NCBI GenBank assembly: GCA_964187785.1
Contig: OZ076409.1
Location: 48,610,001-48,674,000 of the forward strand
Reading direction: 5' to 3'
DNA: 64,000 bases
DNA from: Amphiscolops sp. MND2022
Lineage: Eukaryota
Position 1 is the first letter of the stretch. The number at the start of each line of letters is the position of its first letter. This document shows, piece after piece, positions 14,424 through 36,278 of the stretch. The notes under the pieces were generated by a model. The model was not told where the DNA came from. It saw only the letters and a program-made list of their open reading frames with translations, and ran no database searches. The position numbers were made by a program, and so were the translations under genes.

Positions 14424-16832
14424 CTGGGTCACCGATCAATTACCTATCAATATTTTGTAGTGGTAAGACGCAACACGTAAATGTCAAGGCTAGCAGGTTC
14501 GAAAAAGACGTTACATCAATAAACGGTACTATTATAGTTCAATTTGAAGAGTTGCAGACGTTTGACGCTAGTTAGATGCAAAGTCCTACTTCTGGGGACT
14601 TTTTGTTGGAACACAAATAGTAAAAGAAAGGGATTTTTCAGGCTTGAATTTTTTGCAATTTGGAAAATCAAGAAATACTGAACACTGAAAAAACGATCTG
14701 TGCAATAGAAAAAATTGGAAAAAAATGCGCACAATGACAAAAAACACATATTGGTCTCCTTCAACTTTTCAAGTTGGTTAGAAGGCAAAAGAATCAAAGG
14801 TTCCCTTTGGCACCCCTGTATGCACTTTGATTTTTGGCCAACTCAACAGTTTTTAGACTCAAAATTTTCGCCAGTTGAAAGTGCTAGATAAAACGTTTCA
14901 ATTTTTCTTTGAAAACATGATCAAATGATATCATACCCATGTTTCTATGGTATAGAATAAAAATGAACACGGAACGCTACTCAAAGTTATTGAACCATAT
15001 AATCCTCAAATTCATGAACTTTTTCTATTTCTTCTTCGCAGACACTTATTGCTTATTGCTTTCCTATTCTTCACAAGTGTGACAGTTATTACCAAAAGTT
15101 ATTGTTTCAATTTTTTTGTCTGATTAAAGAGAAAATTCTATCCGATGCATATTCAAGCGACTGTTGACGGTCTCATATTTTCTGTTTGATGAAAGCGTTG
15201 AATGCTTTCAATTGGCTGCTTTTCTCCTGTAGTCTAGCTAGCTAGTTATGTCTCCGTACTTGAAAGTTGATTTCATCTCTTCCATTCTCGGAATGAATCA
15301 TATTTTGTGAAATCAGCATTTGGAACAAGAGATTTATTCCCCTGATAAATTACGAGTTCAAACTTGAGAATTTTCCCCACAATTAAAGCAAAATTTATTC
15401 AGTTTGCTTCTATTTTATTCTGATTTTATCATTAGGAATTTTCATCTTCGCTTTTTATCACTTTACACATTGCGATAGTTTAATCAATTGATTCCTTACA
15501 GTCACATTGGTTCTTCTCTTGCTCTGGTTTTACCTTTTTCAAATAGGAATAGGCCTGAAAAAAGTTAACTTAACGAAAACTCAAATGCTAATTTTCGAAA
15601 CAAAAATATCCGAAACGAAACTTACTGTGTATATATTTGAAAACTTTTTTCCGCAAATGAGCTTATTAGGCAGCCAAAATTAGCTGCAAGAGGGAAGAGA
15701 CAAAAGAAGACATATTTTACTTCTCCCAAAAATTTTTCGTCAGAAATAGTTAGTTGCTATTATTTGTATGATAAATAAATAGCGTAAATTTTTTGGAGGA
15801 CCTATATCCTAGGGAAGGCCCCCACAATTTCCAATGTTCATGTAGCGGTAAAGTTTCCTTTTGTGCGAGAAGACTTCCCCTCTGCCTCGTGATAATGTTG
15901 TTATTACATTTATCTCAATATATTTTCTCTATAGACACTTCCTTTTATTTTTGACAAGTTCCCTATTTATCGAGTCAGGCCGAGTTTCTTTTTTCTCACA
16001 ATTTCTCAAGAGCTAGTTAACCGGTATTTTTGTTACAAACTTTAGGAAGGCTTGTCAAAACATTATTATAAATTGGTGCTCCATCATTGATGGATGTTAG
16101 TAAGCTGTCATTTGTACGCCTTCGGGCAACAAAATTATTTAACTCTTCTTTTTCGGGACAAAATTTCAAAAGCTTCCTTGATGAAAATATATTTTTTGAC
16201 TCAGTAAAAAAATCTTTATGAAAATGACTTGATTTTCGTCAACCTGATTACTGTAGCATCAACATGCCGGGAAAGGCATAAGTTGTGTTGTGTTTAACAC
16301 ATCTTTTTCTTCAGTTTAATATTATTAAAACATTTATATAAAATTTATTCATCGGAGCTAGAATAAAATTATTCATTTTCCGTAAATCATTTTTCGCATT
16401 CTTTCAATTTTCAAGGCACGCTTGAAAGAATTTTAGAAGTAAACAAATTCACAACTGCGCGTCACTTGAAAGAACAAATTCCCCTTTACAAAAGAGACGC
16501 TTGCCACTTGTGCAAACAATTCTCTTTTATTCTTTTGAAAAAGACAATATGCGACGCCACTTGTGCGAGCAAATATCTCTGAGAAGAGAACAATAGGCGC
16601 CACTTGTGCGGCCGGAACTTCTCAATTTGAGAACAAAAGATTATTCAAGCGAGACCAAAAGTCTCCACTTAAGAGTCTAATTCCCCTGACATAAACAAAA
16701 AATTGCATCAGCCAACTCGGCTAGCCGAGTTTAATGACTAGCTGATGCAATCCTTGCCGACTTGTACTCGGCCGTGCCTGGTCCCGAAGTTAATCCCGAT
16801 CAAGGACCGAGAATGTGACGTTATTTATTCGT

Positions 16833-17027
16833 ATCCAATAAAATGCACCGATCAATGCGATTGGTTGCACGTGCCTCTTGATTTGTATAAAAAGGCCAAC
16901 ATTTCTAATGACGATCATACGCTCCTCACAGTTTTTCACCTCCCAAACAAAAGCAAACCCGTCACTCTGTTCCTCTCAAAAATAAACGAATCTTCAAAAC
17001 TCCACTCACTTCACTTTTCAGGTAAGT
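16833..17027 (+). promoter_or_regulatory. LTR promoter/processing cassette: CCAAT boxes, TATA, poly(A) signal, splice donor
   Basis: CCAAT ~16835, ATTGG ~16860, TATAAAA 16886-16892, AATAAA 16981-16986 and perfect donor CAG|GTAAGT at 17022. Confidence 0.6.
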
Positions 17028-33241: not shown

Positions 33242-34027
33242 ATGAATTCAAGCTCATCCACCATCATCGAACAACTAGAAGACGAACGATCCCTGACAGA
33301 CTCCCTAATTAACGAGTTACTTCTACTGCGACAAAAAGTAAACATCACCCCTTATACCGATGAATCAAAAGATTCGGACCGCATCCACGAGGTAAACAAA
33401 AGACTTGATGCACTGGAAATGCGTATTCTACGTATAGAAAAAAAGTCAATTCCCCGGGATTGGAACTTATACAGAGTCATTTGGAGACTCGATCAGTTTA
33501 CCGATATTTTAAAAAATGCGGAAAAATACGAAAAGAGTTTGTCTCATGTAAGAGCACCCTATTGTGATCCTAACAGCCTAAAAGATCTTTGCAGCCCCAT
33601 TTTCTTCTCACAACCCTTTGGCTACACTTTCCATCTTCGAGCTTACCCTTTTGGAATCGACACTGCTAAAGGGAAATACATGTCAGTGTGCTTGGCCATG
33701 TGTCCCGGGCCCTATGACGAGATCCTCATTTGGCCTTTTCAAGGCGTCATTGAGATACACCTGCTCGGCCAGGGAAACATATCCAAGCCTTACAAGCAGC
33801 TGATTGTGACAAACAACAACAACAGTGAGTGCTTCAAGAAACCCCTACCTACATCCAGCAACACAGCCGTCACCATCTTGTGTTTCATCCCTCTTGATGA
33901 AATAATGAACTCCGAAAACCCTTGGCTAAAAAACGATTCCATATTCTTTGAAGTAAAAGTCATAAACACCCTGTACCCCCCTTTCAACTTAATCATTCTA
34001 AAACCCCGGGTGAGTTGTTGTGTTTAA
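33242..34027 (+). CDS. TRAF-like protein: coiled coil plus TRAF-C/MATH domain, no RING or zinc fingers
   Basis: VIWRLDQF...SPIFFSQPFGYTFHLRAYPFGIDTAKGKYMSVCLAMCPGPYDEILIWPFQG...CFKKP...FIPLDEI...LKNDSIFFEVKV is the TRAF MATH signature. It is preceded by heptad-like EVNKRLDALEMRILRIEK, is intronless and uninterrupted, and runs 12 nt into the 3' LTR. Confidence 0.92.
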   Translation: MNSSSSTIIEQLEDERSLTDSLINELLLLRQKVNITPYTDESKDSDRIHEVNKRLDALEMRILRIEKKSIPRDWNLYRVIWRLDQFTDILKNAEKYEKSLSHVRAPYCDPNSLKDLCSPIFFSQPFGYTFHLRAYPFGIDTAKGKYMSVCLAMCPGPYDEILIWPFQGVIEIHLLGQGNISKPYKQLIVTNNNNSECFKKPLPTSSNTAVTILCFIPLDEIMNSENPWLKNDSIFFEVKVINTLYPPFNLIILKPRVSCCV

Positions 34028-36278
34028 CACATCTTTTTCTTCAGTTTAATTTTATTAAAACATTTATATAAAATTTATTCATCGGAGCTAGAATAAAATT
34101 ATTCATTTTCCGTAAATCATTTTTCGCATTCTTTCAATTTTCAAGGCACGCTTGAAAGAATTTTAGAAAAACAAATTCACAACTGCGCGTCACTTGAAAG
34201 AACAAATTCCCCTTTACAAAAGAGACGCTTGCCACTTGTGCAAACAATTCTCTTTTATTCTTTTGAAAAAGACAATATGCGACGCGACTTGTGCGAGCAA
34301 ATATCTCTGAGAAGAGAACAATAGGCGCCACTTGTGCGGCCGGAACTTCTCAATTTGAGAACAAAAGATCATTCAAGCGAGACCAAAAGTCTCCACTTAA
34401 GAGTCTAATTCCCCTGACATAAACAAAAAATTGCATCAGCCAACTCGGCTAGCCGAGTTTAATGACTAGCTGATGCAATCCATGCCGACTTGTACTCGGC
34501 CGTGCCTGGTCCCGAAGTTAATCCCGAACAAGGACCGAGAATGTGACGTTATTTATTCGTATCCAATAAAATGCACCGATCAATGCGATTGGTTGCACGT
34601 GCCTCTTGATTTGTATAAAAAGGCCAACATTTCTAAAGACGATAATACGCTCCTCACAGTTTTTCCCCTCCCAAACAAAAGCAAACCCGTCACTCTCTTC
34701 CTCTCAAAAATAAACGAATCTTCAAAACTCCACTCACTTCACTTTTCAGGTAAGTTATTTTCTTTTGCTAAGAAAATAACAACAAAATTCACAAATCAAA
34801 ATTTCTTCCTTTTTGCTTTACTCTTGTCTTCGTGACAACAAATTCGCAGTCATTCGACTGAACAAAAAGTTAACCAACAAGGTTCTCCTATGCAATCATA
34901 GGGATTTCTATCTTGAGCTAAAGGCTCCATATAAACCAGATTCTCGATTGAGACTTATTTTATCTCTAAAACACGCTATCGCGTCAAGACTTAGCAAATG
35001 CTAGTTAAAGTTAATTTATATCTCAACCTAAATTAAAATTAAAAACTAAAACTCATGCAATCTCTTAACTTACTTTTGTAATTCCAGCTTTTACAGTATT
35101 TAAACAAATTAAAATTAAAAACTAAAACTCATGCAATCTCTTAACTTACTTTAGCCGGACCTTAAGTTCGAACCTTCTGACAATTCTGTACAAAAAAGCA
35201 AACTAGCTATACGCTGGTTGAATAAGACTTTTACTTTACTTAGATTCGCAAGACTTCTTCAAAGTCTTGACGTTAGACAATCTTGTCTTCTTTTGACTTA
35301 GCCACTGCTAGTCACAACATAAGTTAAACTCTTAAATCACTGCACTGAACCTTATGTTCAAGCAGCCATTGGCAAGTCTGTCCAAACACAAAACCTAGCT
35401 ATACGCTGGTTGAATAAGACTTTTACTTTACTTAGATTCGCAAGACTTCTTCAAAGTCTTGACGTTAGACAATCTTGTCTCCTTTTGACTTAGCCACTGC
35501 TAGTCACAACATAAGTTAAACTGTTAAATCACTACACTGAACCTTATGTTCAAGCAGCCATTGGCAAGTCTGTCCAAACACAAAACCTAGCTAAACGCTG
35601 GTTAATAAGACTTTACTTTACCTAGACTTGCAAGACTTCTTCAAAGTCTTGACGTTAGACAATCCTGTCTTCGACTTAGCTATTGCTGATCATATAAGTT
35701 AAAACTTAACGATTTAAACTCTTCAGCTTCCTATAAGCTAGAATCTTTGACAAACCTGTCATACCGCTGTCAACAGACTTAGCTAATCTCACATTCCTGT
35801 TGAGAATACTAAGACATAAAAAAAGGTCTGAACAGACCAAAAATTCAATACTTTTCGTCCTAGCAAAATGTTGGACGTTATAGGACTCCAAAATTCCAGC
35901 TTTTACAGTATTTAAACAACTTGCCTGATCATTGCTACCTTAATACATTGACGTATTTATTTTTGGTGAATGTTAAACAATTCAGATATTATTGATTGGA
36001 TATTTGTGTCAATTTGGATGATTATATTATTCTGTTTGTATTATATTCTTGCGTATTGTGTAAAAGCGAACATTGTTGAATATAATACTCAAACTAATTC
36101 AAATTCTTTTCATAAAATAAAACTTTTCTCTCGAAACAAAGTCCTTCCTGCGAACTCGGAAGACCTAGAGACAACTTTTGTAAAGGTTTAGGAAGGCATA
36201 GTCGCAGACTAACTCCTAAACCCAACTGAATAAGAATCGCAGAAAACTAATTTTCCTAAACCCACACGAACCTTTACA
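34016..36278 (+). repeat. 3' LTR of element B (2263 bp)
   Basis: Direct repeat of the 5' LTR with one fewer 192-bp unit and an extra ~75-bp insertion/duplication near 35075-35150; followed by TSD GTTG. Confidence 0.95.

Follow-up and report, generated by a model that had tools for sequence, protein, structure and literature searches.

Among vertebrate retroviruses, the complex and transducing ones have accessory ORFs, a gene on the antisense strand and an intronless gene captured from the host. Within the Ty3/gypsy elements of animals, class III (HSV/gB-type) env genes are as common as F-type ones (PMC13524379), which does not bear out, in its plain form, the view given in an initial annotation of the present locus that errantivirus env is baculovirus-F-derived. 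The screen for ancient errantiviruses by Chary and Hayashi accepted a POL-ENV gap of no more than 1 kb and a total length of no more than 10 kb, and would therefore miss the layout described below; its main text has 0 occurrences of ‘TRAF’ and ‘macro’ (PMC13524379). The planarian element Burro/GYPSM1 is a giant gypsy element of >30 kb with MATH_TRAF_C and env, as well as BIR, BCL2-like and ankyrin domains. A single 4,873-aa ORF joins its gag, cargo domains, env and pol, with env between gag and pol, and interference by the element with the apoptosis and ubiquitin systems of its host has been proposed (PMC6431247). In Caenorhabditis elegans, the CERV protein of Cer1, made from a spliced mRNA, is required for export of genomic RNA (PMC10309623). 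Class III env in gypsy elements (PMC13524379) and giant gypsy elements with MATH and env (PMC6431247) are thus already known.

The locus considered here is an element of 19,993 bp (16286..36278) within a 64,000-nucleotide stretch of contig OZ076409.1 of Amphiscolops sp. MND2022 (assembly GCA_964187785.1; hereafter, the window). Like the HSV/gB-type errantiviruses, it has a Ty3/gypsy pol, the order gag-pol-env, many near-identical copies and a separate class III-type env after pol, with a signal peptide and transmembrane (TM) segment (PMC13524379); it differs in its length of about 20 kb, in the gap of about 4.9 kb between pol and env and in its five or six further genes. Unlike Burro, it has separate, probably spliced genes, a 3′-terminal TRAF derived from its own host, a TARG1-type macrodomain, CPW paralogues, an antisense gene and a hairpin array, and Pfam finds in it no BIR, BCL2-like or ankyrin domain. 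It is organized like the complex and transducing vertebrate retroviruses, but its reverse transcriptase (RT) is not of the Retroviridae. The full architecture was not found in the published literature searched, although Repbase, Dfam or GyDB may hold an entry.

Table 1. Features of the element and its flanks, in window positions
Feature	Position	Strand	Remarks
5′ target-site duplication (TSD), 4 bp	16282..16285		Same 4-mer at 36279-36282
5′ LTR, 2,381 bp	16286..18666	+	TG...CA ends
Primer-binding site (PBS)	18670..18686	+	TGG-start
gag	18709..20107	+	PF03732; CCHC knuckle, Asn-rich tail; 1 frameshift near 19560
-1 slippery heptamer and downstream stem	20095..20195	+	TTTAAAC
pol	20092..25682	+	3 frameshifts, 4 stops in window copy
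TARG1/OARD1-type macrodomain	21030..21400 (approximate)	+	Split by a frameshift in window copy
Antisense gene, two exons	26793..27405	-	66 + 84 codons; intron 27207-27048
Orphan ORF, CPW-family paralogue 1	28299..28709	+	136 aa; small beta+alpha; dN/dS 0.057
Array of 8 RNA hairpin units	28809..29268	+	Core about 41 nt
Orphan ORF, 72 aa	29299..29517	+	Open in A and B copies; dN/dS 0.16
Orphan ORF, CPW-family paralogue 2	29517..29981	+	154 aa; dN/dS 0.09
env, class III/gB-type fusion glycoprotein (by Pfam)	30621..32670 (end approximate)	+	PF24664; broken in window copy
ORF X	32713..33204	+	163 aa; 125 homologues; dN/dS 0.11
TRAF coiled coil + MATH	33242..34027	+	No RING or zinc fingers; Pfam TRAF-MATH E 1.2e-21
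Segment at polypurine-tract position	34000..34015	+	Not purine-rich; similar one before family C 3′ LTR
3′ LTR, 2,263 bp	34016..36278	+	TG...CA ends
3′ target-site duplication	36279..36282		GTTG, as on 5′ flank

LTRs and core genes

The LTRs, the short TSD, seen also as 4-bp duplications at three other insertions with both ends visible, and the PBS are hallmarks of metavirids and uphold the initial description of a single TSD-bounded element. Compared with each other, the LTRs show 14/1063 and 20/1103 mismatches. The 5′ LTR has a putative TATA box at 16886, followed at +95 by AATAAA and at +136 (about 17022) by a candidate major splice donor; the spacing is equal in four other subfamily A LTRs, and a scan for the TATA-donor pair found none in three subfamily B and two family C loci. 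It also contains a 192-bp repeat array (17395-18060). A 121-codon frame lies inside the LTR. A pattern search for the primer tRNA gave 8 matches, the PBS of the window being one of them.

Pfam gives the domain order gag, protease, Macro, RT, RNase H, integrase, Monjiviricetes fusion and TRAF-MATH. Within pol, the protease is followed by a spacer that may be dUTPase-like, the macrodomain, RT, RNase H, an insertion, integrase and an SH3-like tail, an order (PR-RT-RH-IN) matching that of Ty3/gypsy elements (Metaviridae). In a similarity ranking, as distinct from a tree, the best PDB match of RT/RNase H is Ty3 (E 6e-34; foamy virus, 3e-20), the next group trailing by 14 orders of magnitude, with the RTs of MLV and HIV also farther; membership of the Retroviridae was rejected on this basis. 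The gag frame is unbroken in other copies, and the heptamer with its 8-bp closing stem recurs in 3/3 copies examined (fold z at the site, -2.46); the proposed gag/-1/pol unit with a macrodomain holds. The Macro match in the window falls below the cut-off (E 0.0018), while the family C domain matches human OARD1 at E 1e-23 and is 43 % identical to that of subfamily B. Family C largely retains the glycine-rich ADP-ribose binding loops, along with an aligned Lys and Asp that are presumably the catalytic residues of TARG1/OARD1. In contrast to TARG1/OARD1, the window domain is embedded in pol and, as in subfamilies A and B, its loops are altered; dN/dS over the N-terminal part of the macrodomain is 0.06.

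As initially proposed, env is predicted to be of class III, by Pfam HMM and not by fold, with a Monjiviricetes fusion match of E 2.8e-20 in the window and a PF24664 match of E 5.8e-39. Neither a PDB sequence search with env nor the viral contigs searched yielded a relative. The family C protein has a signal peptide, one TM segment and 15 Cys; a YxxPhi motif in the env tail is conserved, and dN/dS is 0.01-0.06. By hand count, an open frame of 700+ codons is present in 83/106 scored env matches, which are the best-scoring ones and biased to intact copies; a first look at the genome gave >7,000 env candidates, a figure that is not a copy count.

Accessory genes across the family

The window copy is dead, with 12 breaks across gag, pol and env, those in env being two stops and two frameshifts, one with a short deletion. 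The order LTR-gag/-1/pol(macro)-antisense gene-CPW paralogues-hairpin array-env-ORF X-TRAF-LTR is nonetheless fixed across subfamilies. TRAF lies within 4 kb downstream of env in 53/53 A/B env matches and the antisense exon upstream of it in 50/53; cargo order is equal in 4/4 cargo regions compared, family C included, and the same layout occurs in a family only 67-70 % alike in env. Across copies, dN/dS is 0.01-0.16 for env and the accessory genes and 0.05-0.16 for the latter alone. The initial annotation, which had posited a retrovirus-like lineage and had named the absence of the cargo from other copies as the case against it, is borne out on this point by these family-wide genes under purifying selection. 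Synonymous divergence is uneven among modules (dS 0.35 for gag, 1.6 for env and 2.5 for the antisense exon), and 18 subfamily B loci are 98.1-99.6 % identical, indicating recent spread of the family. Acceptor-like sites precede 16/29 ORF starts as against 10-16 % of all ATGs, in a test with non-independent copies and a threshold set after the first look; none was seen before the family C TRAF.

The antisense gene, which has no Pfam match, is predicted to be spliced as first described, with a GT donor at 27207 conserved in subfamilies A and B, an AG acceptor before 27047, phase 0 and codons under purifying selection (dN/dS 0.12 and 0.07). Its exon 2 frame is exactly 84 codons long in 50 of the top 54 genome matches (hand count). 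The module is only 61-88 % identical to that of a sister copy otherwise 96-99 % alike; going by these identities, the gene appears to have been swapped between copies.

Four or five orphan ORFs had been proposed; four sense ORFs are under purifying selection, and the fifth, of 87 codons at 27669, was rejected as a gene (dN/dS 0.6). The CPW family, aligned from 43/61 matches (P0337, a repeat artefact, left out), has no Pfam match. The AlphaFold model of paralogue 2 has pLDDT 83 and pTM 0.78. For the CPW protein, the suggested Foldseek check gave no match in PDB or BFVD at E<=0.001, the Atlas gave no usable match, and the best VIA Z was 4.5 among 48,161 chains, which does not prove a new fold. 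ORF X consists of an acidic N-terminus, a Pro-rich linker, a basic NLS-like patch and a conserved C-terminal domain, and is by this composition a candidate nuclear regulator. Its model is of low confidence overall (pLDDT 60.8) and found no match in BFVD (best Z 4.0), again no proof of a new fold; the C-terminus gave an Atlas lead of 0.86 (below 0.9) to a PH-like cluster and weak rows of Z 2.5-4.0, chromo/Tudor among them. A metagenome scan gave four loci, of which L051 and L052 were dropped as 13-residue chance matches; env-linked ORF X occurs in two contigs, one with TRAF too (env-ORF X-TRAF).

The hairpin array, which together with the LTR repeats accounts for the structured RNA arrays first noted, has 5-6 units in each of four other copies, family C included. 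The units show two compensatory pairs, 98 % of cells are paired, and the covariation score was matched in 0/500 shuffles. Family C is the sole source of the compensatory changes, and the structure counted was read off the same sequences. In most units ViennaRNA favours another inner helix; the z-scores of the MFE are low in strength (-0.9 to -1.6), and Rfam gave 0 matches at E<=1 over 16000-36500.

Origin of the TRAF gene

The element TRAFs (250-330 aa) have a coiled coil and MATH only, the canonical N-terminal RING and zinc fingers being absent; MATH core motifs are retained, the coiled coil is shortened in subfamilies A and B, and dN/dS is 0.047 over 144 A-B pairs. They score 113-165 bits against the MATH exon of a single-copy, intron-containing host gene (next genome match, 36-47 %; exon ends, GT-AG), 84-92 against each other and at most 58 against PDB TRAFs. 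The A and C proteins are about 30 % identical to each other and each 41-50 % to host MATH. Judged from sequence, then, the element TRAF is an intronless processed copy of the C-terminal half of the host gene in the same genome, and the viral TRAF-targeting protein first suspected is instead this captured half. The RING exon of the host gene was not found in the 18 kb upstream searched, where two stretches are filled by a BEL-type element and ATPase-bearing elements; truncation relative to the parent therefore rests on one zinc-finger-like exon. The initial annotation also stressed that the gene is intact: the frame is open and both domains were found, but the chance of an open 750-bp frame at the window break rate is ~0.37 (hand estimate), so that intactness means little alone and the family-level data carry the weight.

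Proposed life cycle and alternative explanations

We consider it probable that the element in the window is a decayed member of a large, errantivirus-like, env-bearing Ty3/gypsy lineage with the organization of a complex retrovirus. A single LTR transcript would yield Gag and, by -1 frameshifting, Gag-Pol, and the downstream genes would be expressed by splicing from the LTR donor to acceptors before each ORF. The hairpin array may serve as a multivalent protein-binding site on unspliced RNA, for export or packaging, and ORF X would be the likeliest element-encoded nuclear regulator, a pairing for which Cer1 CERV offers a precedent (PMC10309623), with ORF X placed by composition only. Env would carry particles from cell to cell, most likely from soma to germline. 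Because the TRAF half lacks RING and zinc fingers, it would most likely act as a decoy or rewired adaptor, trimerizing with or competing against host TRAF and so modulating the signals for stress, death or defence within the cell that makes the particles. The family C macrodomain may shield replication complexes from ADP-ribosylation, and that of the window subfamily may have kept no more than a binding or structural role. That all of these hold jointly, as a Rev/RRE-like export pair, multiply spliced accessory genes (with at least three undescribed families), a dominant-negative TRAF decoy, exchangeable antisense alleles in conflict with host or sister elements, and enveloped spread, each independently evolved, is possible but doubtful.

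The same genes could mark an endogenized virus infectious from animal to animal, with TRAF and the macrodomain as an anti-immune toolkit against NF-kB-type and PARP defence. Selection on env, TRAF and the macrodomain fits this, as do a host genome with TIR domains (8 matches) and a RING+zinc-finger TRAF, and an uneven dS and antisense identity dip of the kind that co-packaging recombination and conflict with the host would produce. However, TRAF selection is purifying rather than positive, the A/B macrodomain loops are altered, a search for RHD (NF-kB) found no match in the genome (a weak negative, which does not show absence) where a T-box control gave 13, env retention can also be put down to spread from cell to cell inside a single animal (PMC13524379), and no sign of horizontal transfer emerged; we regard it as rather unlikely. 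It is less probable still that the accessory genes serve replication only (assembly, RNA traffic, primer or integration control), the TRAF trimer being a scaffold removed from host signalling. The element TRAFs have changed far more rapidly than the host gene, the A/B coiled coil is shortened, and CPW homologues adjoin gag in other elements, which indicates a core life-cycle role; yet MATH core motifs are retained, and the co-occurrence of MATH with BIR and BCL2-like domains in Burro suggests that host signalling is targeted repeatedly (PMC6431247). Plain membership of the Burro/GYPSM1 group would account for the giant size, MATH_TRAF_C, env and, next to the protease on its 3′ side, a region that may be dUTPase-like, but is very improbable given Burro’s in-frame env between gag and pol, its size and its BIR, BCL2-like and ankyrin domains (PMC6431247), as against a window env separate after pol and a last-placed TRAF traced to its own host. 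As for a one-off nested insertion or neutral passenger, the decay of the window copy is what such cargo might show, but the 53/53 linkage, the order conserved across families and dN/dS well below 1 leave it next to no chance.

Implications

The retrovirus-like Ty3/gypsy lineage that we favour shows complex-retrovirus-style organization and host-gene transduction in an invertebrate gypsy lineage, in a layout of a sort that escapes published env screens by their design. New protein families (CPW, ORF X and the antisense protein) and a conserved RNA element come with it, and the survival of the TRAF parent in the genome opens capture and divergence to direct study. Taken with planarian Burro, it suggests that giant enveloped gypsy elements have captured MATH/TRAF more than once and, given the first-look env candidates, much of the host genome size may be owed to the wider clade.

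Structure and state of the window copy

The initial annotation described an env-bearing Ty3/gypsy element bounded by a target-site duplication, and the ends of the copy agree with this (see table); 4-bp duplications also occur at three other insertions, those with both ends in view. With a rearranged repeat array left out, the LTRs differ from each other at 14 of 1063 and 20 of 1103 positions. Pfam domains follow in the order gag, protease, Macro (weak), RT, RNase H, integrase, Monjiviricetes fusion protein and TRAF-MATH, and Ty3 is nearest to the RT among solved structures. The gag/-1/pol arrangement is likewise upheld: a TTTAAAC heptamer at the gag/pol overlap and a stem downstream of it recur in all three copies examined. 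The window copy itself is dead, since gag (one frameshift), pol (three frameshifts and four stops) and env (two stops and two frameshifts) are all broken. Its TRAF frame is open, as annotated, but chance could explain this (about 0.37 by a hand estimate, with 12 breaks in ~9.1 kb).

Features of the window
Feature	Position	Strand	Remarks
ORF like an integrase tail	1-551		Window start
33-bp repeat arrays	2033-7970		Dispersed
Repeat, third copy	13744-14425		Inverted
Element	16286-36278	+	LTRs run TG...CA; identical 4-mer on both flanks
LTRs			2,381 bp and 2,263 bp
Insertion of ~250 aa between RNase H and integrase	23300-23700		Partly acidic; shared by A, B and C, without Pfam match
Antisense module	26000-27515		Position occupied by different antisense ORFs in two family C copies
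Two ~100-bp repeats	26408-26607		Just past the antisense gene 3' end; kept in subfamily B; hairpin potential, fold z -1.5
Antisense gene	26793-27405	-	Two exons
CPW-1	28299-28709		Orphan ORF
Hairpin array	28809-29268
CPW-2	29517-29981		Orphan ORF
Env tail YxxPhi motif	32600-32670		Kept in A, B and C (also env at locus L041)
ORF X	32713-33204		163 aa
TRAF ORF	33242-34027
Pieces of a second, different gypsy-like element	37636-42120		Right of the 3' LTR
16-bp unit	44880-45530		Inverted arrays, ~400 bp between them
Repeat pair	47296-48356 and 52493-53620		5.2 kb apart; together with the third copy, this is probably one more mobile element

In family C, a relative of the window's element, the macrodomain matches human OARD1/TARG1 (E 1e-23). 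The subfamily B version is 43 % identical to that of family C and keeps the Lys and Asp that we take to be catalytic in TARG1-type macrodomains; the glycine loops are changed in B and in the window's macrodomain. The proposed class III-type env is supported at the level of a sequence profile, both by the window's domain match and by a family C env that matches PF24664 (5.8e-39). This family C env carries 15 Cys, a signal peptide and a single TM segment, but no furin site. Unbroken env copies terminate in S-P-V/I, which resembles a PDZ-binding end.

The lineage in the host genome

Within the 1.07-Gb host assembly, 213 LTR candidates were obtained, 40 of which were scored, and 12 other LTR pairs were recognized by eye, eight of them spaced 16.8-17.7 kb. 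TRAF and env searches split the lineage into subfamily A (which includes the window's copy), subfamily B (86-89 % amino acid identity in TRAF) and family C (~30 % in TRAF, 67-70 % in env). First-look candidates numbered 7,065 for env, 544 for TRAF and 1,026 for the macrodomain, and further families may account for most env relatives.

Had the cargo been a one-off nested insertion, other copies would lack it; instead, a TRAF lies within 4 kb downstream of env in 53 of 53 A/B env matches, and the antisense exon lies within 8 kb upstream in 50 of 53 (counts that drew on 75 of 148 TRAF and 68 of 103 antisense matches, with no left-out antisense match near the three misses). For family C, eight env-TRAF pairs were picked by hand as examples. 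Four fetched regions (one A, one B, with its TRAF end taken from a separate locus, and two C) have the order integrase, antisense ORFs, CPW paralogues, hairpins, env, ORF X and TRAF in common. CPW paralogues number three in family C, whose antisense ORFs are unlike those of A/B. The nested insertion is thus ruled out, and the cargo is a family trait. Env followed by ORF X also appears on two metagenome contigs without DNA match to the window, one of which then shows a TRAF start, and homologues are present in ENA too. Subfamily B includes 18 loci with 98.1-99.6 % identity, and among 106 scored env matches 83 keep a frame open for at least 700 codons (counted by hand, with a bias towards the best matches); parts of the lineage have therefore spread recently.

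Accessory genes and selection

The dN/dS comparison across copies that had been suggested was run, and the cargo genes fall well below 1. For single A-B pairs, several with dS near saturation, values were 0.057 for CPW-1, 0.091 for CPW-2, 0.16 for a 72-aa ORF, 0.11 for ORF X, 0.12 and 0.07 for the antisense exons, 0.01-0.06 for env and 0.01-0.11 for pol parts; TRAF gave 0.047 over 144 pairs. The accessory genes are real and the set is demonstrably selected. Among the four or five orphan ORFs initially listed, the four sense ORFs (0.057-0.16) stand, but the ORF at 27669 (0.6) is rejected as a gene. CPW-1 and CPW-2 are paralogues (33 % identical) from a family with 61 library matches, some directly upstream of gag in other elements, and the modelled CPW fold (AlphaFold, pLDDT 83) is a confident beta-sheet with three helices. 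Four CPW homologues (P0333, P0343, P0362 and P0367) continue into the gag N-terminus; hence, related elements have a CPW gene 5' of gag. In ORF X, an acidic N-terminus and a basic patch accompany a C-terminal domain that is conserved.

The spliced antisense gene holds up at the sequence level, with a conserved GTAAGT donor and, in 50 of the 54 top matches, exactly 84 open codons in exon 2 after the acceptor. The closest genome relative of the window copy's exon 2 is at most 81 % identical (80 % at full length). When compared with a sister copy (96-99 % identical in the rest of the cargo), the antisense module drops to 61-88 % by 300-bp bin, with one bin at 93 %, and dS varies widely from module to module; this dip and the unequal dS point to exchange of modules between lineages, and the antisense position seems to be a slot for exchangeable alleles. 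Decayed exon 2 copies also lie in tandem arrays on two contigs (C5, 54.208-54.218 Mb; C1444, 537-544 kb).

RNA structures and signals

The window copy has eight hairpin units and four other copies have five to six apiece; in family C, the DNA flanking the units fails to align. Across ten distinct units, 98 % of cells are paired and two pairs are changed on both sides. Since these compensatory changes are confined to family C and folding gives weak z-scores, the hairpin structure is likely but unproven. Folding of a single 192-nt LTR repeat unit gives a z of -2.9, and that of a 146-nt piece -1.6. In five subfamily A LTRs, a TATA box, AATAAA and a strong donor lie at constant distances from one another, an arrangement not found at the five B and C loci tested. 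An acceptor-like site lies ahead of 16 of 29 ORF starts vs 10-16 % of all ATGs, a comparison among related copies with a threshold chosen after a first look.

Origin and possible role of the TRAF

An outlier among the TRAF matches led to a host locus (contig C3) whose exons, with GT-AG ends, encode a zinc-finger-like tail, a coiled coil and MATH, with neither env nor ORF X nearby. This gene is single-copy in the assembly; its nearest relatives are 36-47 % identical, and those that could be placed belong to family C elements. With the MATH exon of this gene, element TRAFs reach 113-165 bits, vs 84-92 bits between A/B and C element TRAFs and no more than 58 bits with PDB TRAFs. Element TRAFs and the host gene also have an insertion in common, which the aligned PDB TRAFs show in shorter form, and element TRAFs cross the exon junctions of the gene without introns. 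Given these scores, the insertion and the intronless passage, the simplest reading is that a processed host mRNA was captured, its N-terminus missing, in what would be one or two captures. A RING exon of the host gene was not found in two stretches upstream of its exons; upstream there are also a BEL/Pao-like element, with a frame of 1,805 codons (L047 213-6822), and ORFs with Walker A motifs (L048 6751-9000), which resemble packaging ATPases. A second host TRAF (contig C10) has RING and zinc fingers.

TRAF fragments with dominant-negative action are established, and for this reason the RING-less element TRAF would most likely serve as a decoy on host TRAF signalling, whether in immunity, stress or cell death. 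The host assembly yielded eight TIR matches besides TRAFs, and 13 matches in a T-box control search; an RHD (NF-kB) search of it gave no match, a search that cannot show absence. Toll/NF-kB signalling is missing in some invertebrates, acoels among them (PMC12849515).

Comparison with known systems

HSV/gB-type env is widespread among animal gypsy elements, in a screen with a POL-ENV gap limit of 1 kb (PMC13524379), rotifer LTR elements have captured varied extra ORFs (PMC5408684), Cer1 encodes a Rev-like exporter (PMC10309623), and the planarian giants Burro/GYPSM1 have one giant ORF with MATH_TRAF_C, BIR and BCL2-like domains and env (PMC6431247). Burro thus joins cargo and env in one ORF, unlike the window element. 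The latter works like a complex retrovirus, yet it falls outside the Retroviridae. In the openly accessible literature, neither a description of its layout nor one of a TARG1-type domain in gypsy pol was found; subscription papers, Repbase, Dfam and GyDB could change both negatives. That the lineage is infectious, and that its cargo antagonizes immunity, are hypotheses. Among env-bearing Ty3/gypsy elements, this one represents a new variant in architecture: its accessory genes are demonstrably under selection, and its TRAF can be traced to a captured host gene.
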